This document shows, piece after piece, positions 4,122-24,190 of a stretch of DNA of 60,493 nt (positions within the stretch are counted from its first letter, which is position 1; each line of letters begins with the position of its first letter). Source of the DNA: Candidatus Fraserbacteria bacterium (GTDB taxonomy: Bacteria > Bipolaricaulota > Bipolaricaulia > RBG-16-55-9); contig JBBIPG010000004.1 of the NCBI GenBank assembly GCA_037442925.1, forward strand, positions 1 through 60,493, read 5' to 3'. The notes below the pieces were generated by a model. That model made no database searches. It saw only the letters and a program-made list of their open reading frames with translations, and had not been told where the DNA came from. A program made the translations under genes and the position numbers.

Positions 4122-5350
4122 AGGGCATTCTCGTCATTGCCGATGGGTTGGGAGGGCGGCCCACGGATTACGATGGCAAGACGTGCCTTCAGGCAGCAAA
4201 AACACCCACTTTAGATGAACTCGCCCGGCGCGGAATCAACGGGCTTCTAGATCCCATCGCGCCGGGAGTGCGTCCGGGTAGTGATACGGCACATCTGTCG
4301 ATCTTCGGCTATGACCCGTATCGCGATTATCCTGGTCGTGGCGTCTTTGAAGCTGTGGGCATTGGCCTAGAAGTGCGAGAGGGGGACGTGTGCTTTCGTG
4401 CCAACTTTGCCACGGTTGATGAAAACTTTATGGTGAAAGATCGCCGGGCAGGGCGTATCGAGACAGGCCAAGCTGAGCTGGAGCGAGCACTTCAGAAGAT
4501 TCGCTTGCCGTCTGACCCCAATGTGAAAGTCTTGTTCAAAGCGAGCACGGAGCATCGTGGAGCGCTCGTGCTGCGTGGGCCGGATCTGTCACCGGCGATC
4601 ACCGAAGCGGACCCTCATGACGACGGCAAGAAAGTTCTCGAAGTCCGCCCCACTCAAGAAACTCCTCAGGCCAAGCACTCAGCTCAGCTTGTGAATGAGC
4701 TCATTCATCAGTCGTATGAGCTATTGAAGGATCTACCTCTAAACAAAGAGCGTCAGCGCCAGGGAAAGCCTGCAGCTAACATCTTGCTACTGCGTGGTGC
4801 GTCGGGTGTGCCCAACTTAAGGACGTTGCCAGAGCTGTACGGCATTCGTGGGACGGTGATCGCGGCGGGTGCGCTCTACATCGGGATTGGTGTACTAGCG
4901 GGTTTGGAGTTTAAGCGAGCTGAAGGAGCGACGGGCAAGCTGGATTCGAATCTTATCAACAAAGTGAAGCTCGCCGTGGAGGAACTTCAATCAAGAGACT
5001 TCGTGTTTGTTCATATGAAGGGAACGGACTCAGCTGGGCACGATCACCATGCGCAAGCGAAAATCGCATTCATCGAGAAGATCGACGAAGCCATCGGGTA
5101 TTTGCTGGAAAATCTTGATTGGGAAGAGACCCATCTTGCGTTCACGGGCGATCACTGCACACCCATCGTCTATGGAGATCACACGGCGGAACCGGTGCCG
5201 CTCGTGATCGCTGGTCCGAGTGTCATCCCCGATGATGTACAGGCATTTGATGAGAGGGGTGTCATGAGTGGGGGCTTAGGGCGAGTGTCTGGCAACGTTG
5301 TCCCCATGTTGGCTGGTTACAATGATTGGTTGAAGAAACATGGGACGTAA
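4118..5350 (+). CDS. apgM: 2,3-bisphosphoglycerate-independent phosphoglycerate mutase, archaeal type
   Basis: IADGLGGRP, PGSDTAHLSIFGY, GRGVFEA, HMKGTDSAGHD, TGDHCTP, HTAEPVP. Confidence 0.93.
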   Translation: MKGILVIADGLGGRPTDYDGKTCLQAAKTPTLDELARRGINGLLDPIAPGVRPGSDTAHLSIFGYDPYRDYPGRGVFEAVGIGLEVREGDVCFRANFATVDENFMVKDRRAGRIETGQAELERALQKIRLPSDPNVKVLFKASTEHRGALVLRGPDLSPAITEADPHDDGKKVLEVRPTQETPQAKHSAQLVNELIHQSYELLKDLPLNKERQRQGKPAANILLLRGASGVPNLRTLPELYGIRGTVIAAGALYIGIGVLAGLEFKRAEGATGKLDSNLINKVKLAVEELQSRDFVFVHMKGTDSAGHDHHAQAKIAFIEKIDEAIGYLLENLDWEETHLAFTGDHCTPIVYGDHTAEPVPLVIAGPSVIPDDVQAFDERGVMSGGLGRVSGNVVPMLAGYNDWLKKHGT

Positions 5351-5656: not shown

Positions 5657-6340
5657 ATGGACTTCTCTATCATTGTCGCGTTACTCAGCATCGTCCTCAT
5701 TGATCTAGTACTCAGCGGTGACAATGCGCTGGTCATTGGCTTGGCGGCCCAGAGATTACCACTCCAGCAGCGTCGGAGAATCATCCTTTGGGGCACCGTA
5801 GTGGCCATCATGGTACGGGTCTTAACGACCATGGGGGCTGCGTATGTGCTATCCATCCCGTTGCTTCAAGCGGTCGGCGGTGGGCTCCTGGTTTGGATTG
5901 GCCTCAAACTCGCAGTTCACAGACATCGTGAGGCAGCCACTACCCCAGCCGGGAGAAACTTCTGGGACGCGGTACGTATCATCGTTGTGGCCGATGTTGT
6001 CATGGGTATCGACAACATGTTGGCTGTCGCCGGTGCCTCTCATGGCAACATTGGGTTGCTCCTCTTTGGCTTAGCGCTCAGTATTCCGTTGCTGATGGTC
6101 GGAGCTACCTGGATTGCGGCTCTTGTAAGCCGTTTCCCGTGGTTGAATGCCTTGGGAGCGGGGGTTATCGCATGGACTGGTGGAGCCATGGTGGTAGAAG
6201 ACTCTTTGATAAGTAGCTGGTGGAGCGTAGGAGCAAGCTGGGAAATCTTCAGTTGGTTGCTCCCTCTTAGTGTAGGAGGGGGTATGCTGGTTGTCGGTTT
6301 GTTGAGCGAAGCCCGTTTTCAGCGACGTCAGCCATTGTAA
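5657..6340 (+). CDS. TerC-family (YjbE-like) integral membrane protein, probable Mn-related transporter
   Basis: IDLVLSGDNALVI and ADVVMGIDNMLAVAGAS TerC motifs; about 7 hydrophobic segments. Confidence 0.9.
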   Translation: MDFSIIVALLSIVLIDLVLSGDNALVIGLAAQRLPLQQRRRIILWGTVVAIMVRVLTTMGAAYVLSIPLLQAVGGGLLVWIGLKLAVHRHREAATTPAGRNFWDAVRIIVVADVVMGIDNMLAVAGASHGNIGLLLFGLALSIPLLMVGATWIAALVSRFPWLNALGAGVIAWTGGAMVVEDSLISSWWSVGASWEIFSWLLPLSVGGGMLVVGLLSEARFQRRQPL

Positions 6341-6417
6341 TCCTAATCAGAGTGCAGGTGCTGCGACCAAGGAATAATAATGAGTGATGTTATGCGCACG
6401 TACGAGGTTATCGCACG

Positions 6418-6528
6418 ATGATTCGCTGGCTGAAGCGGCTGGGCATTGTGGGCTTCCTCTTCTTTTTGATCAAGGGATTGCTCTGGCTCATTGTCCCCTT
6501 GCTGATTGCACTGCTGAGTGCTCTATGA
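6418..6528 (+). CDS. Small membrane protein, 36 aa (MIRWLKRLGIVGFLFFLIKGLLWLIVPLLIALLSAL)
   Basis: Not in the ORF track (too short). GAGGT RBS at 6404-08, ATG 6418, TGA 6526-28; basic N-terminus then a hydrophobic stretch. Confidence 0.75.
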   Translation: MIRWLKRLGIVGFLFFLIKGLLWLIVPLLIALLSAL

Positions 6529-9510: not shown

Positions 9511-12500
9511 ATGGGACAGCAGGCAAGCCACCGCGTAACACTTGAGGATCTGCGCTTGTGTCGAACCCCTGAAGCTTTGTGCGAATATCTGCTTCGCCCA
9601 TTGGGCTATCGTGTGGAAGAATCACTCCAGCCTCTCGATAAGCAAGCCCTCGACCTGGCTCCGGCTGAGGGGAGAGAGGTGCGCAAGATCTATCTGCTTG
9701 CCGATCACGATCGCCAGTTACAAGTGCTCCTTTGCGAACTCGAGAGCCTCGAGAGCACTCCTCTGAACGCACTGGCAAAGAACTTCCTGCGTCGGCCCGG
9801 CAACTATCTCTTGATCGCCACGCAAGATTACAAGACTCTTGTCTTCATCAATCCCCGCCGCCTGCTCGACGACGGCGCACGCCTGAAGATCAAAATCCAT
9901 AAACTCCTCGTCGATACGACCAATCCCACCCGCCACGACCTCGAAGTCCTGCAAGGCCTCTCCGTCGATGGGCGCTCTGCGATAGAGCTGTATCAAGCCC
10001 ACTGCGAGGCCTTCAACGTCGAGCGCGTCACGCAGCGCTTCTATCGCGAATATGCTCGGCTCTTCGAGCATCTCCAGCAACAAGTACACTCCCACAATCG
10101 CGGCATCGCCCAGTTCAAAGACAAAGCCTATCTGCACGCCTTTACCCAACGCCTGCTGGGGCGCGTGATGTTCTTGTATTTCTTGCAGAAGAAGCTCTGG
10201 CTCGCGGGCCATCCCCGCTTTCTCACAACTTACTATCAGCGCGTCGTGCTCGACAAGCGCAAGAACTACTACAGCGACTTTCTCGAAAAGCTCTTCTTCG
10301 AGACGCTCAACCGCCGACGAGCGGATGATCAATCGCCCTGGGGCAATATCCCGTATCTCAACGGTGGCCTCTTCGAGCGCGATTATCGCTTCATGCTCTA
10401 TCTGCCCAATGAACTCTTCGATCCCAACTCGGATCTGGGCATCTTGGGCTTCTTCAACAGCTGGAACTTCACAGTTCAAGAAGACACTCCCTTAGAGTCC
10501 GACGTGGCGCTCGACCCGGAGCTTCTGGGCAAGGTCTTCGAGAACATGATGGAGTCCGCCGAGCGCGAGCAGTCCGGCACATTTTACACTCCACGTACCA
10601 TCGTGCACTTCATGTGCCGCACGGCCCTTGTGGAGCATCTGTCTGACGAGACGAAGCTCCCTCGTGATCAAATCCGAAAGCTCTTTGAGCTAGACGATGA
10701 GAGTAAGCCGGAGCTCACCGTGGCCGAAGCCACACGGATCGAGAAGGCGCTCCGGCAGTTGCGTGTGCTGGACCCGGCAGTCGGGACAGCGGCCTTTCTC
10801 GTCAGCATGCTTCAAGAGATGATCGCGCTTAGAAGAGCCTGCGAGCGAGCCAAAGGAGCGGAAGTTCGAGTGGGCAGTGCGAAGATTGCCGAATGGAAGC
10901 GCGAGTACATTGCCAATTGTCTTTATGGTGTGGACATCAAAGAAGAGGCCATCGAGATCGCCAAGCTGCGGTTGTGGCTCTCTCTGGTCGTCGATCTGGA
11001 GCGCGATCAAGTCATGCCGCTGCCCAACCTCGATTACAAACTCATGGTCGGGAATTCTCTGATGGAGACGCTCGATGGACAGCCCATTCTCACGATGGAG
11101 AAAGGGCAGACAATTGCTCTGTTGCCCACGGAGACACAACGGGCCATCGAGGAGCTCCAGAAGCTCAAAGAGCAATTCTTTGAAGCCGAGCCGGAGGAGC
11201 GAGCCAAGCTACGTCGGGAAATCGAAGAGCAAGAGCGAGATCTCGTGCTCACGCACATTGCCGAGCGCCAACGCGAGATCGACTCTCAGATGAGGGCCAT
11301 TGAGTCACGGCGCCATCGCGGAAGGCTCGCACGTGCTGATGAAAAGCAGCTGGAGAAGTTGATCCAGTTGGGCGGCGCGCTCGCTCAACTGGAGAGCAAG
11401 ATCAATCAGGGCGAAGCGCTGCCGTTTTTTCTCTACAAGCTGCACTTTGCCGAGGTCTTTGCTGAGAAGGGCGGCTTCGATATTGTCATCGCCAATCCGC
11501 CGTATGTGCGCCAAGAGCGCCTCGATGAAGCTCAGAAAGCTGCGTTTCAGCAGGCTTTCGAGTGCTATCACGGCATGGCCGATCTCTATGTCTATTTTTA
11601 CGAACGGGGCTTTCAGCTCTTAAAGCCCAACGGGCTCTTGGCGTTCATCTCAAGCAATAAATTTTTTAGGGCGGGCTATGGCCGGGGCCTACGCGAGTTT
11701 CTCACAAGAAACGCGACCATTCAGACGATCATTGACTTTGGCGATCAGCCCGTCTTCGATGCGACGGCCTATCCGTGCGTGCTGGTTGTCAAGAATGGCC
11801 CGCCTGCCGATGCTGCCTCCGTCCGGGCGCTCACGGTGACGCAGATCGAGGACTTAGAGCATTTAGATCGGAAGCTGGCTTCCGAAGCAATAGTGCTGAA
11901 GCAGACAGATCTTTCGCCCGAGGGCTGGCGGTTAGAATCGCCACAGCTTTTGCGACTGTTGGAGAAGATAAAATCAGCGGGCGTGCCGCTGGGCGAGTAC
12001 GTGGGGGGCAAGTTTTATCGTGGGATTGTGACAGGATTGAACGAGGCATTTGTGATTGACGAGGAGACGAAGGAGAAGCTGATTGCGGAAGACCCAAAGA
12101 GTGCGGAGATTATCAAGCCGTTCTTGCGTGGGCGGGACATCAAGCGTTGGCGGGTGGATTTTCAGAAACGTTATCTGATCTGGACATATGTGGGAGTGGA
12201 CATCGAGCGTTATCCAGCTATCAAGAAGCATCTTGAGCAATTTCAAGAACGGTTAGAGAAGCGTTGGGACAAGGGTGACTATTGGTGGGAGCTTCGGCCC
12301 TGCGACTACTACGCCGAGTTCGAGAAGCCGAAGATTGTGTATCCGGATATTGCTCGCCGATGTGAGTTTGCTTTTGACGGCAACGGATTCTACGTTGACT
12401 GCACCATTTTCTTGATCCCGACAGACAAATGCTTCCTACTTGGGTTTCTTAACTCTCGCTTGATGAATTTCTGCTACTCGCACATCAGCCCCAGTATTCG

Positions 12501-12738
12501 TGGAGACTTCATGCGCTTCAAAACCATCTACATGGGCCAACTGCCGATTGCGCAGGCCACAGAGAAAGAGAAGACTCAAATTGAAAAGCTGGTCGCGCAG
12601 ATTCTCAAACAGCCCAAAGATGAGCGCGTCGCAAAGTGGGAACACGAGATTGACCAGATCGTCTATAAGCTCTACGGGCTGAGCGAGGAGGAGATTGGAT
12701 TGATTGAGGAGTGGGATGCGAAGAGGCAAAGAGACTAA
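9511..12738 (+). CDS. Eco57I-like / Type IIG-like N6-adenine DNA methyltransferase with C-terminal TaqI_C-type target recognition domain
   Basis: IPYLNGGLFE, LLGKVFENM, GTFYTPRTIVHFM, motif I VLDPAVGTAAF, GVDI, motif IV IANPPY, and C-terminal KPFLRGRDIKRW / EFEKPKIVYPDI. Confidence 0.9.
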   Translation: MGQQASHRVTLEDLRLCRTPEALCEYLLRPLGYRVEESLQPLDKQALDLAPAEGREVRKIYLLADHDRQLQVLLCELESLESTPLNALAKNFLRRPGNYLLIATQDYKTLVFINPRRLLDDGARLKIKIHKLLVDTTNPTRHDLEVLQGLSVDGRSAIELYQAHCEAFNVERVTQRFYREYARLFEHLQQQVHSHNRGIAQFKDKAYLHAFTQRLLGRVMFLYFLQKKLWLAGHPRFLTTYYQRVVLDKRKNYYSDFLEKLFFETLNRRRADDQSPWGNIPYLNGGLFERDYRFMLYLPNELFDPNSDLGILGFFNSWNFTVQEDTPLESDVALDPELLGKVFENMMESAEREQSGTFYTPRTIVHFMCRTALVEHLSDETKLPRDQIRKLFELDDESKPELTVAEATRIEKALRQLRVLDPAVGTAAFLVSMLQEMIALRRACERAKGAEVRVGSAKIAEWKREYIANCLYGVDIKEEAIEIAKLRLWLSLVVDLERDQVMPLPNLDYKLMVGNSLMETLDGQPILTMEKGQTIALLPTETQRAIEELQKLKEQFFEAEPEERAKLRREIEEQERDLVLTHIAERQREIDSQMRAIESRRHRGRLARADEKQLEKLIQLGGALAQLESKINQGEALPFFLYKLHFAEVFAEKGGFDIVIANPPYVRQERLDEAQKAAFQQAFECYHGMADLYVYFYERGFQLLKPNGLLAFISSNKFFRAGYGRGLREFLTRNATIQTIIDFGDQPVFDATAYPCVLVVKNGPPADAASVRALTVTQIEDLEHLDRKLASEAIVLKQTDLSPEGWRLESPQLLRLLEKIKSAGVPLGEYVGGKFYRGIVTGLNEAFVIDEETKEKLIAEDPKSAEIIKPFLRGRDIKRWRVDFQKRYLIWTYVGVDIERYPAIKKHLEQFQERLEKRWDKGDYWWELRPCDYYAEFEKPKIVYPDIARRCEFAFDGNGFYVDCTIFLIPTDKCFLLGFLNSRLMNFCYSHISPSIRGDFMRFKTIYMGQLPIAQATEKEKTQIEKLVAQILKQPKDERVAKWEHEIDQIVYKLYGLSEEEIGLIEEWDAKRQRD

Positions 12739-13207
12739 AAGTCAACGTGAAAAACCCACCAGGTCCGTTGTAGATCAGCACGCATCGGGAGAGAACGTCA
12801 CGACCCAACAGAACGATAATATCTCGTCCCGCAATGCTTTGCCCTGATAGATCAACACCGATGACCGAGCTGAACTCGAGTTCTAGCGCTTCTCCTGGAA
12901 AGCGAAACCTTGCGGGATACAAATGCTGCTGGACTCGCCCACCTGCTGTCCCAGTCGTAGTAACCCCGATTGGGTTCACACCCAGATTTGTAATGGCCTT
13001 TGAATCGACACAGCTCCGTGTAGCTCCCGTATCAATGAGCGCCCAGCCTGTTACAGGTGCAGGAATGGACTGGTTTTGCGCTGTGAGGAATTGAGCCAGT
13101 GCCGAGGGGATTGAGACTTCCACTTGCAAGAGAGGGCCTGCCTGTACCAAGACAGCGGGGTTAATCTGATTGCCCTGGCTAAGGAAGAAGCGATTATGAA
13201 CGGGCAT
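12605..13207 (-). CDS. Retropepsin-like (clan AA) aspartic protease; C-terminus reads through into the methyltransferase gene
   Basis: ALIDTGATRS catalytic motif and LLGRDVL second motif. ATG 13207 overlaps the upstream gene's stop by 14 nt. The fold appears to end near 12740 (GFFTLTF). Confidence 0.85.
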   Translation of the reverse strand: MPVHNRFFLSQGNQINPAVLVQAGPLLQVEVSIPSALAQFLTAQNQSIPAPVTGWALIDTGATRSCVDSKAITNLGVNPIGVTTTGTAGGRVQQHLYPARFRFPGEALELEFSSVIGVDLSGQSIAGRDIIVLLGRDVLSRCVLIYNGPGGFFTLTFSLFASSHPTPQSIQSPPRSARRAYRRSGQSRVPTLRRAHLWAV

Positions 13208-13442
13208 TGAGCAATCCCAAAGTGAGCGCAGGGAAGTGGACGACTTCCTCTTCCTTCGTGACCTTCTTGATGAGGAAGGGTTGATTACCAAATCTCTGAA
13301 TCCCAGCTTGGTAAGCTTCTACCTCTGTAGTAAAAGCTCCAACGAGTTGATCATCCTTGATCAAGACAAATTGATTTTCGTAATGCTTCAAGAGTTCGTC
13401 TTTGTGATCTTCGAAGTACTTCAACTCTTTCGCCAGGACCAT
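13194..13442 (-). CDS. Small DUF5678-like protein (82 aa)
   Basis: YFEDHKDELLKHYENQFVLIKDDQLVGAFTTEVEAYQAG..RFG..PFLIKKV pattern; GGAGGAGG RBS. Confidence 0.75.
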   Translation of the reverse strand: MVLAKELKYFEDHKDELLKHYENQFVLIKDDQLVGAFTTEVEAYQAGIQRFGNQPFLIKKVTKEEEVVHFPALTLGLLNARS

Positions 13443-13598
13443 CAGCTACCCTCCTCCGCCGGAAAAGATACCACACACTCTCACTTGTACCAACTTGTTC
13501 CACCTGAAGTATAGCAGTTACCTCTCTCAGGATCAAAATGCAGAGTTGGCCGAATGAGCCATCCATGCTACGATCAACCGTTACGGAGACTAAAGACT

Positions 13599-16500
13599 AT
13601 GCCCAGCTACTTGCCACCAGACTATATCGACAACCAGCACGAGACTCTGGCTGCGGCGCTACAGAAGATCATCCGCGATCTGGAGCAGCACGAGGCAGCT
13701 ATCGCCACGGGCTTCTTCGATCCTCGTGTGTGGGAACTCTTGCGAGAAGCATTGCCCCTCTTGAAGGAGTTGCGCTTGCTCATCGGCAAGGAGCCCGATG
13801 TCACCTATGGTGGCCTGGATCGCCTGGATCTGCGCCGACTCTATCGCCAAAAGCTCCAAAGCGATCTTGACGAAATGCCTTATGATGTGACTCATGTGAG
13901 ATTAGTCACAGAGCTGATCGAGTTTCTCAAGCGAGAATCTGTGAGCGTCAAGCTCTACAAGAAGGGCTTCCTGCACGCGAAGGCGTACATCTTTCCCGAG
14001 ATCGCTGTCGTGGGCTCGAGCAATTTCACGCCCTTTGGTCTGACGCGCAACTCCGAACTCAACTTGGTGCGCAAAGAGCGCTCCGTCGCCACAGATTTGA
14101 GAGACTGGTTCGACGCTTTCTGGGAAGAATCTGAGGACTATAAGCCTGAGCTGATTGAAACGCTGGAAGCTTCTAAATTTGGTGGCAAGCCCTACACGCC
14201 CTACGAAGTCTTCATCAAGACCCTCTATGAATACTTCAAAGACCGGCTCATTCCCGAAGCGCCCGAGAGCCAATTGGGGGTCGAACTGGCAGCGTTTCAA
14301 GAAGAAGGCTTAAAGGAAGCCATGCGCATTCTGGATAGACACCACTGCGTACTCATCTCGGATGCCGTGGGACTGGGCAAGACGTTCATCGGCTTGGGCC
14401 TGCTGGAGCATTATCTCTTGCGCAAGCGTCGTCGAGGTCATATCCCGCAAGGGCTGGTCATCTGTCCGGCTCAACTGCGCGACATCCTCTGGAGGCCCAA
14501 ACTGGCTGAGCATGGCCTCAGTGCCACGGTCGTCTCGCAGGAAGAAGTCAGCCGCGCAGATTTCCCGTGGAACGCTTATAAGAACTTCGATCTGGTCTTG
14601 GTGGACGAAAGCCACAACTTTCGCAATCCCGGCATCGGACGCTCTCAAAACCTGATGAAGCTGCTTTCCACAGGAAGACGCGATAAGCATGTCATTCTCA
14701 TGACCGCAACGCCCATCAATAACTCGATCTGGGATCTTTATCATCAGATGATGTTGATGGCCCGAGGAAGCGACGAGTACTTTCGGGATTGGGGCATCAG
14801 TAACTTGAAGGGCTTCTTCCGCAGGGTCGATCAAGGAGCCGCAGAGCTATTTGATCTACTGGAAGAGACGACCGTGCGTCGCAGCCGCTCTGATATCCGC
14901 AAGCGCCAAGAGGCCGGAGAAACCATTACGCTTCACGGCGAAGAAGTCAGATTTCCGCAGCGCGAATTGCAAGCCATCGACTACGATCTTGTCGCGACCT
15001 ATCAAGGTTTCTATCAAGAGATTGCCCGTAGCATTGAGGCACTCAGTCTCGTCAGCTACAACATCGAGGAATTCAAGCGGTCTCGCGATCCGGATCACGT
15101 ACATCGCATACAACGCAACAACGCGCTCATCGGCATCATGAAGACGCTCTTTCTCAAACGACTCGAAAGCTCGGTGGAGGCGTTTGAAGTGAGCATTCGC
15201 CGTCAGCGCCAATTCCAGCAACAGTTCTTCGAGCACCTGCTGCAGAATCGATTGCTAGACACTACAAACCATCGAAAGATTCTGGCCCTGGAACAAGAAG
15301 ACGATGAGGAGTCACTTGTGCAGATCATAGAGAATCTGCCAGAAGTCTCCATTGCTGAATATGATCTCAAGGCCATTCGTCGCGCCGTCGAGATGGATCT
15401 TCAGATCTTTGAGAGTATGGAAGAACGGCTTAAGAAAATCCGCAAAGCCACAGAACAAGACATCAAATTGGATCGCAAGCTGGAGCGCCTCAAAGCGGTG
15501 CTCCTGGAGCGATTTAGGGGGCAGAAGATCTTGATCTTCTCGTACTATCAAGACACAGCAATACATATCTATGAGCGGCTTCAAGGTGACTCAACGTGGA
15601 GTTCTCAAATGGGCAATCCTCGGCTGGGTCTAGTCTGCGGAGCTCGTTCTGTCTATAGCGAACCCGGCTCCGGTGAAGATCGTCATCTGCCGCGCGAGCA
15701 GCTCATCAAGCATTTCGCTCCGCTCTCCAATGCTGCCAATGAGGATGAACGGAAGAGCTTGCAAACACGAGAGATTCAGGTTTTAATCAGCACCGACGTG
15801 CTCTCCGAGGGGCAGAATCTGCAAGATGCTGCCATCTGCATCAATTATGATCTGCACTGGAATCCGGTGCGCATGATCCAGCGAGCCGGGCGGATCGATC
15901 GGCTCAATTCAAAGCACTCTCGAGTGACGGTGTGCAATTTCTTTCCAGAAAGAGGGCTTGAGGATCTTTTGGGGCTTGTCAAGCGACTGCAACAGAGAAT
16001 TACCGATATCCACAGAACCGTCGGCCTCGACACGAGCGTGCTAGGCGAGCGGGTGACCGAGCGGTCGCTGGAGGAGCTCAAGCGTCTCAAGTCGGCTGAG
16101 GAGGGCGTCTGGGAGGAGCTGGAGCGAGAGGTTGAGCTGCTCTCGTTGGATGAGATGAAGTTCCCTTTGATTCAGTGCCTGCAATCGTTGGGAGAAGACA
16201 GACTCAAAGAAATCCCCCTGGGCATTCATAGCGGGAGGCACGCTTCTCTTGATGGTCTCTTTCTGGCCTTCAGAGCGCGTGATCGCCATTTCTGGCGCTT
16301 CTACCCTGCGGATAAGAGCAGTCCTGTATGGAAGGAGAAGCGCAAGATCTTTAAGCTCATTCAATGCCCTATGGAGGAACCGCGGCAGATGCCGACCCCC
16401 AGGCCGGACGTGTTTGAGATCATGGATCGTGCAGTCAAAGACCTGCTAGAAGAGCTAAAGAGCGTTGAAGCCACACGCCGCATCAAGAGCCCTCTCAAAA

Positions 16501-16814
16501 GCATGAACCTCAAGCTCTACAGCGCGCTTCACCAAGGTTCGCAGTCTTCTCAACCCATATCTGCTGATCTGCGTGAGCGTTTGAGCGGCGTCTTGGAAGA
16601 GATTTCTCTGAAGCCCTTCGAGCGTGATCCGGCTCTGAAAGCGATCTGGCAGCAGTTTCAAAAGAGCGGTGATCTCAGAGCACTAGCGGATGACTTGGAT
16701 GCTTTCTTTGTCGAGAACGAACTCTATCGCGACATGGCTCCGCCGGCACTGCTGGAGCGAATTCGTGCAGAAGATCTGCAGCTTGTCTGCTATGAATTTC
16801 TCACGGCCCATTGA
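13599..16814 (+). CDS. PLD-nuclease / SNF2-family helicase fusion
   Basis: N-terminal FLHAKAYIF..AVVGSSNFT (PLD HxK/GSxN); SDAVGLGKT, LVDESHNFRN, MTATPINN, STDVLSEGQNLQ, NYDLHWNPVRMIQRAGRIDR. GGAG RBS before ATG 13599. Confidence 0.9.
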   Translation: MPSYLPPDYIDNQHETLAAALQKIIRDLEQHEAAIATGFFDPRVWELLREALPLLKELRLLIGKEPDVTYGGLDRLDLRRLYRQKLQSDLDEMPYDVTHVRLVTELIEFLKRESVSVKLYKKGFLHAKAYIFPEIAVVGSSNFTPFGLTRNSELNLVRKERSVATDLRDWFDAFWEESEDYKPELIETLEASKFGGKPYTPYEVFIKTLYEYFKDRLIPEAPESQLGVELAAFQEEGLKEAMRILDRHHCVLISDAVGLGKTFIGLGLLEHYLLRKRRRGHIPQGLVICPAQLRDILWRPKLAEHGLSATVVSQEEVSRADFPWNAYKNFDLVLVDESHNFRNPGIGRSQNLMKLLSTGRRDKHVILMTATPINNSIWDLYHQMMLMARGSDEYFRDWGISNLKGFFRRVDQGAAELFDLLEETTVRRSRSDIRKRQEAGETITLHGEEVRFPQRELQAIDYDLVATYQGFYQEIARSIEALSLVSYNIEEFKRSRDPDHVHRIQRNNALIGIMKTLFLKRLESSVEAFEVSIRRQRQFQQQFFEHLLQNRLLDTTNHRKILALEQEDDEESLVQIIENLPEVSIAEYDLKAIRRAVEMDLQIFESMEERLKKIRKATEQDIKLDRKLERLKAVLLERFRGQKILIFSYYQDTAIHIYERLQGDSTWSSQMGNPRLGLVCGARSVYSEPGSGEDRHLPREQLIKHFAPLSNAANEDERKSLQTREIQVLISTDVLSEGQNLQDAAICINYDLHWNPVRMIQRAGRIDRLNSKHSRVTVCNFFPERGLEDLLGLVKRLQQRITDIHRTVGLDTSVLGERVTERSLEELKRLKSAEEGVWEELEREVELLSLDEMKFPLIQCLQSLGEDRLKEIPLGIHSGRHASLDGLFLAFRARDRHFWRFYPADKSSPVWKEKRKIFKLIQCPMEEPRQMPTPRPDVFEIMDRAVKDLLEELKSVEATRRIKSPLKSMNLKLYSALHQGSQSSQPISADLRERLSGVLEEISLKPFERDPALKAIWQQFQKSGDLRALADDLDAFFVENELYRDMAPPALLERIRAEDLQLVCYEFLTAH

Positions 16815-16868: not shown

Positions 16869-17354
16869 ATGAACATGAAAGAGCTGCTTCAACTCAAAGT
16901 GAACGGTGAGCTTCATCAGCTCACGGCACCCGTCCAGAAAACGCTGCTCGAAGTCTTGCGCGAAGATCTTCAGCTTACGGGGACCAAGCACGGCTGTGAG
17001 GTCGGCGAATGCGGCACGTGCACCGTTCTGATCGACGGCGAGCCTGTACTGTCGTGCTTGACGTTAGCACTGGAAGCACAAGGACATGACATCACGACCG
17101 TCGAAGGCTTAGAACAGAATGGGACCCTGCACCCGGTTCAAATTGCCTTTGCCGAGCGAGGCGCGGCCCAGTGCGGCTACTGCACGCCGGGCATGCTCGT
17201 GACCGCCAAAGCCCTCCTTGACAAACATCCAAGCCCATCGCGCGAAGAGATCAGAGAAGCGCTTTCAGGGAATCTTTGCCGCTGTACGGGTTATTTGAAG
17301 ATCATCGAAGCCGTCGAGTTGGCAGCAAGTCGTCTCACTGCCGCAAAGGGGTAG
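16869..17354 (+). CDS. Xanthine oxidase-family 2x[2Fe-2S] small subunit (HcrC/CoxS-like)
   Basis: GCEVGECGTCTV..SC and QCGYC..GNLCRC. Confidence 0.93.
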   Translation: MNMKELLQLKVNGELHQLTAPVQKTLLEVLREDLQLTGTKHGCEVGECGTCTVLIDGEPVLSCLTLALEAQGHDITTVEGLEQNGTLHPVQIAFAERGAAQCGYCTPGMLVTAKALLDKHPSPSREEIREALSGNLCRCTGYLKIIEAVELAASRLTAAKG

Positions 17355-17357
17355 CGC

Positions 17358-19778
17358 ATGGCGAGAACGAAAGATTTTTCAGTGATTGGAAAACCCTTTC
17401 CGCGCGTGGACGCCTGGGCCAAATGCACTGGGCGTGCCCAGTACGCCGATGATCTCTCCCTTCCGCGCATGGCCTATGGGAAGCTTTTACCCAGCATCTA
17501 TCCCCATGCTCTCATCCAACATATTGACATAAGTCAGGCAGAGCGTCTCTCCGGCGTGCTTGCCGTGATCACAGGTGAGAGCCTTCCCGTCAAATATGGC
17601 ATCATGCCCAGCACACAAGACGAGACGGCCTTAGCTGTCGGAAAAGTACGCTATGTGGGTGAACCTGTGGCTGCCGTCGCTGCCATCGACGAAGACATAG
17701 CTGAAGAAGCCCTCTCGCTCATTCATGTGGAATATGAGCCCCTCAAGCCCATCATGTCCATCGAGGAGGCCGTGACAGTCAAAGAACCGCGCATCCACGA
17801 CTACGGCCCTGAAGGCAACATTCACAAGCTCGTCTCTCTAGAATTTGGCGATGTCGATGCTGGCTTTGCTGAGGCCGATCATGTGCGCGAAGATGTCTTC
17901 TTCTATCAGGGCAACACGCATCTGCCCATGGAGCAGCATTCCGCTCTTGCCCAATGGAACCCTGCGGAAGAGAAGCTGACCCTCTGGAGTTCGACTCAGA
18001 CCGCGCACTATGTGCATCGTGCTCTCGCCAGAGTGCTGCAACTGCCTGAGCACAAGATTCGGGTGATTGCCCCACCCGTCGGTGGCGGCTTTGGCGGAAA
18101 AGATGATCCCTTCTCGCATGAGATCTGTGCAGCCAAGCTCAGCATGATCACGGGTCGCCCCATCAAGATCACACTCACCCGTGAAGAGGTCTTTTACGCA
18201 CACCGTGGGCGTCACCCGGTGTTGATGTGGGTCAAGACGGGTGTCAAAAAGAACGGGAAGATCACAGCGATGCATTTCAAGTCGTTTCTCGATGGCGGAG
18301 CCTACGGCTCCTACGGAATCGCCAGCACCTATTATACAGGTGCCTTGCAGACGATCACGTACAAGATCCCGGCGTATCGCTTCCAAGGAATGCGGGTGTT
18401 CACAAACAAACCCCCTTCAGGTCCCAAGCGCGGGCACGGCACACCACAGCCGCGCTATGCTCTGGAACTGCACATGGACAAGCTCGCTCAGGATCTCAAG
18501 ATCGATCCGATTACGCTACGCTTGCGCAATTTGACGGGGCCGAACCACATGACAGTCAACTGGCTTAAGATCACGAGCAATGGCCTCAAGAAATGCATTG
18601 AAAGAGTGATCGAAGCCTCGGGCTGGAGGGAGAAATACAAGAAGCTGCCTCTGGGAAAGGGAGTAGGCTTTGCCTGCAGCACATATATCTGTGGGGCTGG
18701 ACTGCCCATCTACTGGAATGACATGCCCCACTCAGAAGTGCAGATCAAGATCGACCGCACCGGCACAGTGACTGCGTTCTCGGGTGCCATCGATATTGGG
18801 CAGGGCTCAGACACGGTGCTGGCGACGGTCATTGCCGAGGTGCTGGGGCTCTACCCCCAAGACATCAAGCTGGTCACGGCCGACACAGACTTGACGCCCA
18901 TTGATTTGGGAAGCTACTCCAGTCGGGTGACGATGATGATGGGCAACGCGGCCTATGAAGCCGCCATGAAAGCCCGCAAACTCCTCTTCAAGGCCGCCTC
19001 TGAAAAATTGGGCGTGCCGGTCAAAAATTTAGTCGCTAAAGAGCGGCGCATCTTCGACAGAGAAGATCCCAAGCGGGCTCTCTCTTTTGCGGAGGCCGCA
19101 CGGCTAGCGGAAGCTCGATTTGGCTTAATCGGGGCTGTAGGCAGCTATAAGCCCCCTAAGAAGATGGGCAATTACAAGGGTTCAGGTGTGGGTCCTTCGC
19201 CTGCCTACAGCTTCTCTGCCTGCGTAGCGCAAGTCGACTGTGATTCCGAGACGGGCAATGTGAAGGTAGAGAAGATCTGGCTGGCGCATGACATTGGGCG
19301 GGCGATCAACCCCATTCTTGTGGAAGGCCAGATCGAGGGCAGTGTGTATATGGCCTTGGGTGAAGTATTGATGGAAGAGCAGATTTTCAGGAAGAATCTC
19401 CATAAGATCCCGTCGCTGCTCGACTATAAGAGCTTGACGTTCAAGGAGATGCCAGAAGTAGAGTCGATTCTCGTTGAGACGGACGAGCCGCGGGGACCCT
19501 TTGGGGCCAAAGAAGCGGGTCAGGGGCCGCTTAATCCCGTCATTCCAGCAGTGGCCAATGCCGTCTACAACGCTCTTGGCATTCGAATCGAGGAGATCCC
19601 GATCACGCCGGAGAAGGTGCTGAAAGCTCTGGAAGAGAAAGCGAAGGGCAAGCTGGCGCGTGTTGGCCCGGATGGGATTCCCGACTATAAATTCCCCGAT
19701 CCCATCAAGGTCGAGCCTCCGGAGGAGTGGAAACAGGAGCATCCACCTGTGAGCCAAGCGGCCGAAAAGGTAGGTTGA
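17358..19778 (+). CDS. Xanthine oxidase-family molybdopterin-binding large subunit, HcrA-like, with an atypical active site
   Basis: GGGFGGK, AHRGR, RGHG, DIGQGSDT, GSYSSRVT, EGQIEG and GPFGAKEA follow HcrA; Gln occupies the catalytic Glu position. Confidence 0.88.
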   Translation: MARTKDFSVIGKPFPRVDAWAKCTGRAQYADDLSLPRMAYGKLLPSIYPHALIQHIDISQAERLSGVLAVITGESLPVKYGIMPSTQDETALAVGKVRYVGEPVAAVAAIDEDIAEEALSLIHVEYEPLKPIMSIEEAVTVKEPRIHDYGPEGNIHKLVSLEFGDVDAGFAEADHVREDVFFYQGNTHLPMEQHSALAQWNPAEEKLTLWSSTQTAHYVHRALARVLQLPEHKIRVIAPPVGGGFGGKDDPFSHEICAAKLSMITGRPIKITLTREEVFYAHRGRHPVLMWVKTGVKKNGKITAMHFKSFLDGGAYGSYGIASTYYTGALQTITYKIPAYRFQGMRVFTNKPPSGPKRGHGTPQPRYALELHMDKLAQDLKIDPITLRLRNLTGPNHMTVNWLKITSNGLKKCIERVIEASGWREKYKKLPLGKGVGFACSTYICGAGLPIYWNDMPHSEVQIKIDRTGTVTAFSGAIDIGQGSDTVLATVIAEVLGLYPQDIKLVTADTDLTPIDLGSYSSRVTMMMGNAAYEAAMKARKLLFKAASEKLGVPVKNLVAKERRIFDREDPKRALSFAEAARLAEARFGLIGAVGSYKPPKKMGNYKGSGVGPSPAYSFSACVAQVDCDSETGNVKVEKIWLAHDIGRAINPILVEGQIEGSVYMALGEVLMEEQIFRKNLHKIPSLLDYKSLTFKEMPEVESILVETDEPRGPFGAKEAGQGPLNPVIPAVANAVYNALGIRIEEIPITPEKVLKALEEKAKGKLARVGPDGIPDYKFPDPIKVEPPEEWKQEHPPVSQAAEKVG

Positions 19779-19784
19779 ACACTC

Positions 19785-20819
19785 GTGCTACGTCTGCCCA
19801 AGTTTGAATATCTTGCACCTAAGACGCTCAGCGAAGCCACCAAGATGCTCGCGGATCATGGCCCCGACGCCATGGCTGTCGCCGGTGGCACCGATGTCTA
19901 CCCTAAGATGAAGCGCCGCCAGTTCTTGCCCAAACTTCTCATCGGACTCCGTCATCTCAACGAACTGAAGGGAGTCCAAGGCAATGCACATTCTGGTCTC
20001 GTCATAAAGGCGGGCACATCGCTCACCGAAGTCAGCAATCATCCCATTGTGCGAGAGAGCTATCCCGGCCTGGCAACAGCTACGGGAGTCATCTCCACAC
20101 CCATTTTGAGAAATATGGGCACCATCGGCGGCAATTTGTGTTTGGACACCCGCTGCAATTACTACGATCAGACTCATCATTGGCGGGTGGCCATCGGCTG
20201 GTGCATGAAAGCCCCCGGTCCCAAGGGTTGGGCCATCGCTCCCGAACGTGCTCCAGAAAAGGGTGATATCCCCTGCCGTGTGGCACCCGGAGGCCCACGC
20301 TGTTGGGCTGTCTCATCAACAGATAGTGCGCCCATGTTCATCGCACTCGATGCGAAAGTGAAACTCATGAGCCGTGCAGGTGAGCGGCTCATCCCCGTGA
20401 GAGAACTCTACCGTGATAACGGCATGTTTTATTTGAACAAACGACACGAAGAACTGCTGACAGAGATCCACCTGCCCCCTGCCAGTGGTGTCAAGAGCAC
20501 GTACTGGAAACTGCGTCGACGCGGATCGTTCGACTTCCCCGTGCTGGGTGTTGCTGTGACACTAAGACAAGCGCCCGATGGGAGGGTAGAGCGTGCCAAG
20601 ATCGTGCTGGGTGGCGTTGGCTCTCATCCCATGGAGATGCCCCAGGCTGCACAACTCTTGATGGGCCAGAAGATCACGCCCGATGTGTTGGACGCTGTAG
20701 CCCAAGCGGTCTTCCAGCCCGCACGTCCGCTGGACAACACAGACTATCATCTGTTTTATCGAAAGCGCATGGCAGCGGTCTACGTCAAGCGGGCTCTTAC
20801 TGAGCTGGCTTCAATGTGA
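19785..20819 (+). CDS. FAD-binding subunit with inserted [4Fe-4S] domain (HcrB-like)
   Basis: AGGTDVYP, RNMGTIGGNLC, and four Cys spaced C-x15-C-x23-C-x8-C. Confidence 0.88.
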   Translation: MLRLPKFEYLAPKTLSEATKMLADHGPDAMAVAGGTDVYPKMKRRQFLPKLLIGLRHLNELKGVQGNAHSGLVIKAGTSLTEVSNHPIVRESYPGLATATGVISTPILRNMGTIGGNLCLDTRCNYYDQTHHWRVAIGWCMKAPGPKGWAIAPERAPEKGDIPCRVAPGGPRCWAVSSTDSAPMFIALDAKVKLMSRAGERLIPVRELYRDNGMFYLNKRHEELLTEIHLPPASGVKSTYWKLRRRGSFDFPVLGVAVTLRQAPDGRVERAKIVLGGVGSHPMEMPQAAQLLMGQKITPDVLDAVAQAVFQPARPLDNTDYHLFYRKRMAAVYVKRALTELASM

Positions 20820-20854
20820 ATCCCAACGGTTAGCAGTTACAATGAGAGCTAGTC

Positions 20855-21940
20855 ATGAGGGAATTGCTTGGGATCTTGAATCGCATTGTAAAGCTCTCTG
20901 CGGAGGGGCAAGCGGCGGCACTGGCCACGGTCATTGCCACCTCCGGCTCGACCTATCGCCGTCCCGGAGCACGGCTGCTCGTTATGGAATCTCAGTCCAT
21001 AGGAGCCGTCAGCGCAGGCTGTCTTGAAGACGAAATCATCTCCGTCGCTCAACGCGTTTTGAAAACAGACCAGCCTCAGCGGATACACTTTGACACGGCG
21101 GAAGAGATGGACCCCATCGTGGGCACAGGGTTGGGCTGCCGTGGCACCATCGAAGTCTTCATCGAGTCTCTGCAAGCTGATGAGGGCGGTGCGCGGGTCT
21201 ATCGCGAGCTGCGCCAGGCGCTCATGCAAGATCGAGTCTGCCATCTGGCCATCGAGCCCAAGACGGCTCGACATATGCTCATCGTGGAGGGAGAGCTCTG
21301 TTTGGACGAGCTGGAAGATCCCCAGCTGCTGGCGGCCGTACGCCGCGCTTCAGGGTCGATGCGTGGAAGGCATGAAATCCTTCAGCCACAACCTGATAGA
21401 GCAATCTATCTTGAACGCATTGATCCGCCGATGAGACTCGTGATCTTTGGCGCAGGATATGATGCGATTCCGCTTGTCCAGCTGGCTAAGGAGCTGGGTC
21501 TTCGCGTTACGGTGGTCGATCATCGCCCGGCGTATTTGACAAGGGAGCGCTTTGCGAACGCCGATCAGCTTCTGCTGGCGCATCCTTCAGAGCTCTCGCA
21601 GAAGATTCAGCTTCAACCGGGCTCGTTCGTCGTCATCATGACGCATAACTATCTCCACGATCTGGAGATTCTCAAATTCACGCTTGGGAGTGAAGCTTCT
21701 TATATCGGCCAGATGGGACCGCGGGAGCGCACCCAAGAGTTACTGGCTGAGATTGAGAAAGGGATTGGACCACTCTCTGCTGAAAGACTCGCACGTGTAC
21801 ATGCGCCTATTGGGTTGGATCTGGGAGCCGAGGCTCCTGAGGAGATTGCCCTGAGCATCTTGAGCGAGATTCTGGCTGTGAAGAATGTGCGCTCTGCGGG
21901 ATTCTTGAAGGGACGTCAAGCGCCGATTCACTCCCCATGA
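20855..21940 (+). CDS. xdhC: XdhC/CoxF-family Moco sulfuration/insertion chaperone
   Basis: GSTYRRPGA, GAVSAGCLE, LGCRG, FGAGYDA, MTHNY..D, APIGLDLGA..PEEIALSI. Confidence 0.92.
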   Translation: MRELLGILNRIVKLSAEGQAAALATVIATSGSTYRRPGARLLVMESQSIGAVSAGCLEDEIISVAQRVLKTDQPQRIHFDTAEEMDPIVGTGLGCRGTIEVFIESLQADEGGARVYRELRQALMQDRVCHLAIEPKTARHMLIVEGELCLDELEDPQLLAAVRRASGSMRGRHEILQPQPDRAIYLERIDPPMRLVIFGAGYDAIPLVQLAKELGLRVTVVDHRPAYLTRERFANADQLLLAHPSELSQKIQLQPGSFVVIMTHNYLHDLEILKFTLGSEASYIGQMGPRERTQELLAEIEKGIGPLSAERLARVHAPIGLDLGAEAPEEIALSILSEILAVKNVRSAGFLKGRQAPIHSP

Positions 21941-22554
21941 GCCGTGAACATAAACTGCCCGGTGTCGTACTGGCTGCCGGGCAGGGAACGCGCTTTCGTG
22001 ACGGCTACAAGCTGCTCATGCCCTTCCGCCATCGTGCGATCATCTATCACAGCGTGAGAGCCCTGCTCGATTCGCAATGCGAACCCGTGGTGCTTGTAGT
22101 GGGCTTTGAGCGCGAGAAGATTCTGAAGGCTCTAGGGGAACTACGAGATCATCCCAAACTGCGAATCGTTCACAATGAGCGCTGGCAGTCGGGGCAGGCT
22201 TTTTCTGTGAGAGCCGCGATTGAGCATCTGCCCCAGGATGCGCCCGGTGTGCTCTTTTTGCCGGGAGATATGCCGCTGATGAGGAGCGTGCTCGTGGATC
22301 GCGTCACACAGCGATTTCTCCAGACGGGTGAGCTCTGTTTTCCCATCTATCAAGGCCAGAAGGGCCATCCGACGGCTTTCCCCCGTGAGCTATTAGGCCG
22401 ACTCTGCGAGCTGGAAGGCGATGTTGGTGGCTTATCTCTCGTGCGCGAACATTGGGGTGACGCAGAGAAGATTGAGCTTGAAATTGGAGAAGAATGTACA
22501 CAATTGGATCTCGATACGGCAGCGGACTACCAGCGTCTGAAAGCTCTTCAATGA
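21937..22554 (+). CDS. mocA: Molybdenum cofactor cytidylyltransferase-like NTP transferase
   Basis: VLAAGQGTRF, LPGDMP, GHPTAF, GDVGG, DLDT..DY. Confidence 0.8.
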   Translation: MSREHKLPGVVLAAGQGTRFRDGYKLLMPFRHRAIIYHSVRALLDSQCEPVVLVVGFEREKILKALGELRDHPKLRIVHNERWQSGQAFSVRAAIEHLPQDAPGVLFLPGDMPLMRSVLVDRVTQRFLQTGELCFPIYQGQKGHPTAFPRELLGRLCELEGDVGGLSLVREHWGDAEKIELEIGEECTQLDLDTAADYQRLKALQ

Positions 22555-23186
22555 AGATCACAGCGCTCGTATTAGCCGGAGGCCAATCTCATCGAATGGG
22601 GCAAGACAAACGACTGCTGGAATACCAGGGCAAGCCACTCATCCGTAGAGCATTCGAGGCAACTCAAGCCATTAGCGACGAACTTTGGGTACTCATCGCT
22701 TCTCACGAAGATCAGCAAATCCTCTCGCCGCTGCTTAATAGAGATACCCGCTTTCTCCTCGATGAGCATCCCAACTCCGGCCCTCTGGCAGCCCTGGTAA
22801 ACGCCCTTCCTCACGTCAAGAGCAAGTACGCTCTGCTGCTGGCTGTCGATTATCCGCTGGTAACGAGGTCGTTCCTGCAAAAGATGAAAAGCACATTGGA
22901 AGCCCAAGCGCCCTCGCCTGATGCCTTTGTTCCCCTCTGGCAAGGCATTCCCCAAGTCGCGTGTGCTTTCTATCGACAATCGCTTCACACAGAACTGAAA
23001 GAAGCGTTTCTAAAGGGAGAACGCTCGCTCCGTCGCTGGGTGCTGAGCTCGCCCAAGGGCAGAGTGCAGTGGCTGCACGAGGAGGACTGGCAGCGATGGG
23101 AGCACCGCGAGGTCTTTCTCAATGTCAACACGCCTCAAGACTACCAGCGCCTTCTGCAACTGGCCCGGAGTCCATTTGAAAAGTAG
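22551..23186 (+). CDS. mobA: Molybdenum cofactor guanylyltransferase
   Basis: VLAGGQSHRMGQDK, GPLAAL, AVDYP, FLNVNTPQD; ATGA overlap with mocA. Confidence 0.88.
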   Translation: MKITALVLAGGQSHRMGQDKRLLEYQGKPLIRRAFEATQAISDELWVLIASHEDQQILSPLLNRDTRFLLDEHPNSGPLAALVNALPHVKSKYALLLAVDYPLVTRSFLQKMKSTLEAQAPSPDAFVPLWQGIPQVACAFYRQSLHTELKEAFLKGERSLRRWVLSSPKGRVQWLHEEDWQRWEHREVFLNVNTPQDYQRLLQLARSPFEK

Positions 23187-23212
23187 ACCCTGAATGTCCG
23201 ATAATAACCGAC

Positions 23213-24190
23213 ATGAAGCTCACGGATCGCTTTGGCCGAGTGCACAATTATCTGAGAATCTCAGTCACGGACCGCTGCAATCAGCGCTGTCACTTCTGCA
23301 TGCCCCTTGATCAACAATTCTTTCACTCCAAGAAAGAGATCCTTTCTTTTGAAGAGATCGTGATGATCGTGCAAGTGGCCAACAAGCTGGGCATCGACCG
23401 CGTGCGGATCACCGGCGGCGAGCCTCTCGTCCGGCGCGAGTTGCCCAAGCTCATCTGTATGCTCAAAGGTGAGACAGACACGAAAGACATCTCGATGACC
23501 ACCAACGGCCTGCTGCTGGAACGCTTCGCCCAGCCGCTCAAAGAAGCAGGCCTAGATCGCATCAATGTCAGCTTGCACTCACTCCAATCTGAAAGATTCA
23601 ATAAACTTACACGCTTCGGAACGTTAGAGACGGTGCTCCGTGGCATCCGCAAAGCAATGGACGTGGGCTTAAAACCAATAAAACTTAACGCGCTCATTCT
23701 AAAAGGCTTCAACGAAGACGAGATCGAGGATCTCTTCCAGCTCACGCTGCAAGATAAGATCGTCGTCCGTTTTCTGGAGCTGATGCCCATCGGCGAGGCG
23801 CTTAGCTTAAACGGCTTCGGCTCATATCTCAACTTGACAAGAGTGCGCGAGAGGCTTGCTGAGAAATATGGGCTCCTGCCGGCCGCAGAGAACGGCAACG
23901 GTCCAGCCAAGTATTGGCAAGCGCCAGGAGCTCCGGGGAAGGTGGGCTTCATCACGCCGATCTCCAACAAATACTGCGACACATGCAGTCGCTTGAGACT
24001 GACAGCCAACGGGGAACTTCGGCCTTGTTTGGCGTATGATGTCCACGTGAACATGCGCGAGGCCATTCGCAACCGCGATCTCGCTGCCATCGAAGAGGCT
24101 TTCATAAGAGCACTGGAGATCAAGCCCAAAGGACATCATTGGGAAGAAGGGCAGACCACGCACACCGTCATGTCCAGTTTGGGAGGTTAG
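23213..24190 (+). CDS. moaA: GTP 3',8-cyclase (radical SAM)
   Basis: CNQRCHFC, RITGGEP, CDTCSRLRLT..G.LRPCL, C-terminal GG. Confidence 0.96.
   Translation: MKLTDRFGRVHNYLRISVTDRCNQRCHFCMPLDQQFFHSKKEILSFEEIVMIVQVANKLGIDRVRITGGEPLVRRELPKLICMLKGETDTKDISMTTNGLLLERFAQPLKEAGLDRINVSLHSLQSERFNKLTRFGTLETVLRGIRKAMDVGLKPIKLNALILKGFNEDEIEDLFQLTLQDKIVVRFLELMPIGEALSLNGFGSYLNLTRVRERLAEKYGLLPAAENGNGPAKYWQAPGAPGKVGFITPISNKYCDTCSRLRLTANGELRPCLAYDVHVNMREAIRNRDLAAIEEAFIRALEIKPKGHHWEEGQTTHTVMSSLGG

Follow-up and report, generated by a model that had tools for sequence, protein, structure and literature searches.

A 60,493-nt stretch of DNA from Candidatus Fraserbacteria bacterium (assembly GCA_037442925.1, contig JBBIPG010000004.1, positions 1 to 60,493 of the forward strand; hereafter "the window") encodes a two-gene cassette in which a small gene for a DUF5678-like protein overlaps, and is translationally coupled to, a gene for a retropepsin-like aspartic protease. 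The two genes form an obligate, translationally interlocked and mobile pair that is found from Chloroflexi-like bacteria to Thaumarchaeota and that is sometimes encoded as a single chain. We tentatively favor the hypothesis that the pair is an autonomous, horizontally mobile bicistronic module with a toxin-antitoxin-like function, in which the C-terminal tail of the small protein would control the protease. To our knowledge, DUF5678 has no assigned function, and stand-alone prokaryotic proteases of the retropepsin fold have barely been characterized, with RimB and RloA, which belong to a different family, as the known examples.

The original prediction, made from the sequence alone, had described an 82-amino-acid (aa) gene with a strong ribosome-binding site that overlaps the gene of a DTG protease by 14 nt, had named the products DUF5678-like and retropepsin, and had placed the pair antisense between a methyltransferase and a helicase. 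Each of these points is borne out by the analysis below: the two open reading frames (ORFs), the ribosome-binding site and the overlap at 13194-13207 are as described, Pfam and fold matches agree with both identities, and the pair lies on the minus strand between flanking genes that are both on the plus strand.

A conserved and translationally coupled gene pair

The protease ORF of the window spans positions 12605-13207 of the minus strand (ATG at 13207, stop codon at 12605-12607) and encodes 200 aa, and within it a family-typical core of 157 codons (12737-13207, minus strand) carries the catalytic motif ALIDTGAT (D59-T-G-A), a GRD motif (G135-R-D137), and the C-terminal strand FFTLTF. The protein scores 25.4 bits against PF13650 (Asp_protease_2), just over the Pfam gathering cut-off of 24.3, while its scores against PF13975 (22.6 bits) and PF00077 (16.8 bits) fall under their respective cut-offs. 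An AlphaFold2 model (predicted local distance difference test [pLDDT] score of 87.6) has the retropepsin fold, and its top Foldseek matches in the PDB are the proteases of xenotropic murine leukemia virus-related virus (XMRV), human T-cell leukemia virus type 1 (HTLV-1), feline immunodeficiency virus (FIV), and foamy virus together with the RVP domain of Ddi1 (probability of 1.0, E = 1.6e-4). A sequence search of the PDB returned retroviral proteases only, with E values of 0.04 or greater. The D-[TS]-G-A motif, preceded by two hydrophobic residues, is kept in all 135 unique proteases of the family, and GR[DNE] is kept in 128 of the 135; the constancy of the former argues for an active enzyme, and the protease looks catalytically active. 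Members of the family are typically ∼157 aa long and end in a conserved FFTL(A/T)F, and this single-lobe size implies that they probably act as homodimers. Membership in TIGR03698 (clan_AA_DTGF) was considered and rejected, as the window protease scores 21.8 bits against this NCBIfam model, far under its curated cut-off of 57.35, and carries DTGA rather than DTGF.

The small partner gene (13194-13442, minus strand) begins with ATG and encodes an 82-aa protein with an isoelectric point (pI) of 5.5, in which a DUF5678-like N-terminal domain is followed by an acidic linker (KEEE) and a conserved hydrophobic tail, FPALTLGLLNARS. The predicted secondary structure comprises a helix at residues 4-20, strands at 24-29 and 32-37, a second helix at 40-51, and a final strand at 57-61. 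The score of this protein against PF18929 (DUF5678) is 19.9 bits, under the Pfam gathering cut-off of 23.2, yet the relatives P0200 (36.2 bits) and P0244 (31.6 bits) pass that cut-off and another relative of the small gene, P0054, has a precomputed PF18929 match, so that the window protein is best called a divergent DUF5678-like member. Its monomer model is of moderate confidence (pLDDT of 72), and a Foldseek search of BFVD with this model recovered DUF5678 proteins of Pandoravirus neocaledonia and Pandoravirus macleodensis (probability of 1.0, template modeling [TM] score of 0.61) as well as S5WA56, an 80-aa viral protein (TM score of 0.71, 35% identity). There was no match to the small protein in a sequence search of the PDB and nothing significant in a PDB fold search with the model. 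The small-protein family is large, with 4275 representatives at 50% clustering (E ≤ 1e-3). One relative, P0182, consists of the small protein alone in tandem duplication.

In the tail, the consensus of which is P-A-L-x-L-G-(L/I)-(L/I), the residues P, A, L, G, and L/I persist with every synonymous codon in use, and this pattern of constant residues and varying codons indicates that the tail is under selection at the protein level. In the monomer model the tail is of low confidence and disordered, as expected of a segment that folds upon binding.

This same tail region contains the start of the protease gene. The 14-nt overlap in the window (13194-13207, minus strand) places the protease start, ATG-CC (M-P), within the N-A codons of the small-protein tail, and throughout the family the codons after the L-G-(L/I)-(L/I) of the tail form the first residues of the protease, M/V-P, from an ATG or GTG that precedes CC. 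An overlap of exactly 14 nt was found in 47 of 85 nonredundant pairs, and in the remainder it is mostly 17 to 53 nt and varies in steps of three, which preserves the frame relation between the genes. The two genes are translationally coupled. A G-rich Shine-Dalgarno-like TGGGA (13215-13219, minus strand) lies 7 to 11 nt upstream of the protease ATG, within the L-G-L codons of the tail; it probably acts as the ribosome-binding element of the protease, and related sequences are present at the junctions of relatives.

Upstream, the cassette carries signals of its own. The small gene has a strong ribosome-binding site, GGAGGAGGG (13449-13457, minus strand), 6 nt ahead of its ATG, and a sigma-70-like promoter (TTGATC, a 17-nt spacer, and TG-TATACT; 13508-13536, minus strand) is predicted ∼66 nt upstream of the gene. 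A comparable TTGACA/TAnnnT promoter stands directly upstream of the pair in many relatives, and the strict pattern occurs in 12 of 91 loci where 0.45 would be expected. A tandem 10-mer (ACTTGTACCA/ACTTGTTCCA, 13483-13502), which follows the predicted −10 element and precedes the ribosome-binding site, is possibly a candidate operator or possibly a product of chance, and it is not conserved in relatives. A search of Rfam gave no RNA family within the cassette or close to it, and one of PHROGs gave marginal matches only, to families of unknown function.

We anchored one scan on the protease, using one genome per GTDB species, and recovered 80 loci in Bipolaricaulota, Planctomycetota, Dehalococcoidia, bacteria of the candidate phyla radiation, Acidobacteriota, Nitrospirota, Verrucomicrobiota, Thaumarchaeota, Bathyarchaeota, Thermoplasmata, and other groups. 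Of the 79 loci that could be evaluated, 77 have the small gene, detected with a hidden Markov model of the small protein, immediately upstream in the same orientation, and the pairing is kept in 17 of 20 IMG/VR contigs, down to ∼25% protease identity. A reciprocal scan of metagenomes was anchored on the small protein with a narrower alignment of its family, and here a protease partner is present in 65 of 77 contigs. Altogether the same gene order and frame relation recur in well over 150 independent loci, placing the pair far beyond chance.

The two coding regions also occur in joined form. P0200 (385 aa) and P0244 (376 aa) are natural fusions that combine two DUF5678 domains, a nearly full-length Asp_protease_2 domain, and a C-terminal hydrophobic helix indicative of the membrane, and locus L019 (Parcubacteria) holds a deletion fusion of both genes. 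Neither the fusions, which lack the PALxLGLL tail, nor L019 retains this segment, and from this we infer that in the two-gene form the tail would serve to hold the small protein onto the protease.

Loss of one partner is asymmetric. The protease is missing or decayed with the small gene kept in 12 of 77 loci, four of them with partial protease remnants, whereas the small gene is missing with the protease kept in 2 of 78 loci (Fisher's exact test, p = 0.005); these frequencies come from different collections, which makes the asymmetry supportive but not decisive. P0054 is an example of an orphan small gene, and L117 has a small-gene remnant only, with no protease. More frequent loss of the protease is the direction predicted for a poison-antidote pair with the protease as the poison, and it argues against the reverse, RosmerTA-like arrangement in which the protease would be the antitoxin.

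Cassette transfer and genomic setting

Two loci with otherwise unrelated flanks capture the cassette in transit. A 930-nt block that contains the promoter and the pair is 93.5% identical between L007 (8801-9727) and L009 (9596-10524), with ∼118 nt ahead of the small gene and ∼50 nt beyond the protease included, and such identity amid unrelated flanks indicates recent horizontal transfer of the cassette alone, with the block as the mobile unit. In the window, GC content is 0.49 to 0.52 over the cassette compared with 0.55 to 0.59 in its flanks. Some of the IMG/VR copies, on viral contigs, sit among genes for an integrase, RecT, an exonuclease, a terminase, and a head protease.

The flanks in the window, neither of which is part of the module, are an Eco57I/TaqI_C type IIG-like DNA methyltransferase on the left (9511-12738, plus strand) and a protein with HKD (phospholipase D [PLD]) nuclease and SNF2 helicase domains on the right (13554-16814, plus strand; true start probably 13599). 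The gap between them (12739-13598 in the window) can be followed through several relatives, at L119 (3377-4176), L120, L117 (2554-5885), L121 (5037-6004), and L203 (3886-4962), and its content differs among them. In L119 and L120, the helicase of which is 76% identical, DNA homology ends at the methyltransferase stop (window position 12719) and resumes at the helicase start (13596), and the gap is filled by an 82-aa gene and a PIN gene that form a VapBC-like pair. L117 and L118 hold a PIN pair, a DUF6602 gene, and an S49-type protease, as well as what is left of the small gene, a 128-aa remnant in the place and orientation seen in the window, with the tail and the retropepsin gone. L121 has a 108-aa gene and a weak-HEPN gene of 123 aa, and Aggregatilinea lenta (L203) has a DUF3644 gene. 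These comparisons show the gap to be a cargo slot in which small cassettes are swapped between closely related genomes, and the retropepsin cassette is therefore interchangeable cargo and not a component of the restriction-type system.

We also tested the 82-aa gene of L119 as a homolog of the small protein, which would have amounted to partner swapping, and found that it is not homologous. Downstream of the helicase in Aggregatilinea lenta, L203 8432-13231 encodes a 1409-aa CHAT protein and a TIR protein as part of a larger defense island.

Elsewhere the pair keeps different company. An ortholog with 85% identity (P0063) occurs on at least 24 contigs from several metagenomes, between hisS and an operon with S-adenosylmethionine (SAM)-methyltransferase and fab genes, and there are no restriction genes with it. 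At L084 to L093 this 85%-identical pair is found at 5721-6471 beside hisS, and at L114 to L116 an unrelated orphan small gene is found at 5001-5252 in a hisS-aspS setting. The hisS/NosD/Uma2/fab synteny of L084 to L093 is common to L117 to L120, which suggests that the pair kept its place while restriction genes came or went around it.

The wider neighborhood was sampled by drawing 150 random genes within 3 kb of the pair at 69 loci, with 150 genes at 6 to 10 kb as a control. No third conserved gene was found in this sample, no Pfam family occurring more than 3 times among the 150 near genes, most of which are housekeeping genes. In a comparison with PADLOC models (E ≤ 1e-10), 51 model families, including NsnA, PD-T4-6, SspH, DrmD, mad3, and mad6, match the near set and 4 match the control, the near count being inflated by redundant models that hit the same protein. 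We read this as a possible, modest and nonobligate enrichment of defense genes. An association with defense loci, which the original prediction had proposed to examine through genomic-context statistics, may thus exist to a limited extent; linkage to restriction genes is not conserved.

The remainder of the window provides the setting of this locus. Directly downstream of the helicase, positions 16869-24190 hold a molybdenum hydroxylase cluster (annotated from the relative L001/L002) with 2Fe-2S, MoCoBD large, and flavin adenine dinucleotide (FAD)-binding subunits, XdhC, two NTP_transf_3/MobA-like genes, and a radical-SAM MoaA-like gene, so that the defense-type genes form a small island within housekeeping genes. 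Farther along are a transfer-messenger RNA (tmRNA) gene at 29389-29750, with the tag peptide ANELAYAAPSLN, and genes for tRNA-Val(TAC) and tRNA-Asp(GTC) at the contig end (60246-60455).

Possible functions of the pair

In the toxin-antitoxin-like mechanism that we tentatively favor, the homodimer-type retropepsin-fold protease and its cognate DUF5678-like partner would be made in fixed proportion by translational coupling. The acidic small protein would use its conserved C-terminal tail, P-A-L-x-L-G-(L/I)-(L/I), which is predicted to be disordered, to dock on the protease. The tail may add a β-strand to the dimer interface or, acting as a pseudo-substrate, to the substrate cleft, and the bound small protein would restrain the protease. 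Were the partner depleted or displaced, free protease could cleave cellular targets and bring about growth arrest. The cassette of the window would merely occupy the variable cargo slot of the methyltransferase/helicase operon and would have no functional part in it.

The pair resembles a type II toxin-antitoxin system in being bicistronic, with a small upstream gene that is coupled to its neighbor, in being conserved as a pair and mobile, in its patchy distribution, and in the greater frequency of orphan small genes than of orphan proteases. The general idea of a toxin-antitoxin-like autonomous module, already put forward in the original prediction, draws further support from the promoter that the cassette carries, the strictness of the pairing, the transfer of the 930-nt unit, and the VapBC-like occupant of the same slot in sister genomes.

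Several observations weigh against this hypothesis. No description of the DUF5678-retropepsin pair as a toxin-antitoxin or defense system was found in the searchable literature, nor was any toxin-antitoxin or defense system with a retropepsin effector, including in searches of the Makarova 2009 survey and the NetFlax paper. Neither protein matches any model of PADLOC-DB v2, and no homolog of the protease was found in the GenBank phage or PLSDB plasmid collections, which represent cultured organisms. No DNA-binding fold is recognizable in the small protein, which is acidic and gave no helix-turn-helix (HTH), ribbon-helix-helix (RHH), or AbrB match and no PDB fold match; likewise, inverted repeats are not enriched upstream of the pair across the family (4.90, compared with 4.67 in shuffled sequences and 4.81 inside genes), which gives no indication of classic autoregulation. 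Two solo proteases, L042 (1416-1925) and L047 (9887-10444), for which no small gene was detected upstream, keep the DTGA motif, both reading ALIDTGATFSAVD; such persistence fits a lethal toxin poorly, and these two are possibly a sub-branch that does without the partner. The membrane-anchored single-chain fusions suit a cofactor or adaptor at least equally well, and the loss asymmetry is tempered by the separate origins of its two frequencies.

In the likeliest of the alternatives, the protease would depend on the small protein as a subunit that activates it or recruits its substrates, and the module would be an accessory proteolytic device instead of a poison-antidote pair. The tail would then complete or stabilize the protease fold, or would dock a DUF5678 domain that selects substrates. 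The protease is almost never without the small gene (77 of 79 loci), the single-chain fusions with two DUF5678 domains, the protease, and the membrane helix are stable architectures, and there is no sign of DNA-binding autoregulation, all of which are natural for a cofactor; characterized bacterial retropepsin-like enzymes also use partners, as RimB does with RimK (PMC11957791). We nevertheless consider this arrangement rather unlikely, given that 16% of the small-anchored loci have an orphan or remnant small gene and no protease, which is unexpected for a pure cofactor, and that the mobility, the variable contexts, and the use of a slot that a VapBC-like pair can also fill are more usual in selfish or defense cargo.

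An improbable reading is that the small protein is a substrate or pro-protein, with the protease cutting its linker or tail so that the DUF5678 domain or a short peptide is released or activated. Retropepsins (family A2) prefer extended hydrophobic sites, and the small protein presents a conserved hydrophobic tail after an acidic linker, predicted to be disordered, with an L-x-L-G-L-L sequence typical of such sites; the strict conservation of the catalytic motif is also in keeping with cleavage. The fusions and L019, however, keep both domains without the tail, and the tail doubles as the translation start region of the protease and is hence constrained for other reasons too. We also know of no function for a released DUF5678 domain.

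A separate question concerns the state of the copy in the window, the protease of which reads through its usual end. A window-specific extension (12605-12736, minus strand) adds 43 basic residues (pI of 12) and a stop codon, and covers the final 134 nt of the methyltransferase gene in antisense. At 12737-12740 the sequence has TTTT both in the window and in Logan SRR11582170, whereas GCA_037444325.1, a 99%-identical relative with the same gene order, has TTTTT followed by TAG, and its protease TAG overlaps the methyltransferase stop. It is the T4 in place of T5 that costs the window protease its stop and adds the 43 residues. The ORF end at 12605 is correct for this sequence and atypical for the family, for which 12737 is the typical end. 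The T4 state may be genuine, as an attenuating frameshift, or may come from a sequencing error in the homopolymer.

The window might hold only a module remnant, its protease inactivated by the lost stop and by a basic extension of 43 residues on the C-terminal strand of the dimer interface. The T4/T5 difference from so close a relative, the conserved and terminal position of FFTL(A/T)F in the family, and the frequency of protease decay within the family all speak for such decay. Still, the ORF is otherwise intact, with 99% identity to the 157-aa form, and a homopolymer sequencing error is possible, though T4 is present in two assemblies. Retroviral proteases, moreover, tolerate C-terminal extensions in their precursors, and on balance we regard an inactivated copy as improbable too.

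Finally, the original prediction had suggested that the cassette might process or regulate the neighboring restriction proteins. In such a role, comparable to that of PrrC in the EcoprrI operon, the protease would be guarded by the methyltransferase or helicase or would process one of them. This reading can claim the exact position between these two genes in both the window and GCA_037444325.1, the L117/L118 remnant in the same place, which shows the insertion to be old, and the type IIG enzymes that lie within 4 kb upstream of the pair in L004/L012, L007, L009, and L038, but it is highly improbable and largely refuted by the context data, in that the hisS-linked ortholog with 85% identity has no restriction genes on at least 24 contigs, only 5 of the 80 loci have a methyltransferase homolog nearby and none has a helicase homolog, no family recurs among the 150 sampled neighbors, and relatives carry cargo of other kinds in the slot (DUF3644, or a pair of the VapBC-like or weak-HEPN type).

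Returning to the toxin-antitoxin-like hypothesis, we suggest with somewhat greater reserve that the pair may represent an undescribed, widespread class of toxin-antitoxin or abortive-infection systems in uncultivated bacteria and archaea, in which a clan AA protease would be held in trans by the tail of a DUF5678 protein acting as a pseudo-substrate or interface strand. If the hypothesis is true, aspartic proteolysis would join the toxin-antitoxin and defense repertoire as a new effector chemistry, together with a new neutralizing domain, and DUF5678 would gain a function. The pair could then serve as a simple bacterial model of a retropepsin controlled by a peptide tail in trans, and the arrangement would be the prokaryotic equivalent, in two polypeptides, of the zymogen-like control of proteases.

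Comparison with known systems

The window protease resembles the retroviral and retrotransposon proteases (MEROPS family A2, clan AA) and the RVP domain of Ddi1 in its predicted fold, its D-T-G-A and G-R-D motifs, and its single-lobe size. It differs from them in sequence, with an identity of just 14 to 19% and PDB sequence matches at E values of 0.04 or worse, and in an extra N-terminal segment of ∼50 residues with a conserved MP(I/V)HN start that is present in the window family. It is also the product of a stand-alone prokaryotic gene, with a partner in trans and no polyprotein. The TIGR03698 proteins are similar as small stand-alone clan AA proteases of archaea and bacteria.

PrrC is an abortive-infection effector embedded in a restriction-modification operon, EcoprrI. 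The cassette of the window has a similar position, between modification and nuclease/helicase genes, but the linkage of the pair to restriction genes is not conserved.

Among prokaryotic peptidases of the retropepsin fold, RimB and RloA of Pseudomonas act with operon partners, the ATP-grasp protein RimK for RimB and RloB together with RloC for RloA, and cleave glutamate-rich sequences (PMC11957791, PMC12239564). Both belong to another sequence family, with no Pfam match in common with the window protease, and RloA is secreted whereas the window protease lacks a signal peptide and is partnered by a DUF5678 protein. RimB and RloA show no more than a tendency of such enzymes to work with operon partners.

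Small mobile modules that combine a protease with a small partner are known in RosmerTA (RmrT/RmrA) and ImmR/ImmA, where an ImmA/IrrE zinc metallopeptidase is the anti-repressor or antitoxin, usually with an HTH partner or domain (PMC10440598). The window pair differs from both in that its protease is a retropepsin and in that the loss asymmetry suggests the protease as the component that needs its partner.

In organization there is a likeness to type II toxin-antitoxin systems such as VapBC. The pair is outside the known toxin and antitoxin families, an aspartic protease would be its toxin, and no DNA-binding domain or operator signal was detected in it. Like those systems, it is a two-gene operon with its own promoter in which a small upstream gene overlaps a larger downstream gene, it is transferred as a cassette of ∼0.9 kb and is patchily distributed, and it preferentially loses the downstream gene; in addition, the retropepsin pair shares a genomic slot with the VapBC-like pair of its sister genomes.

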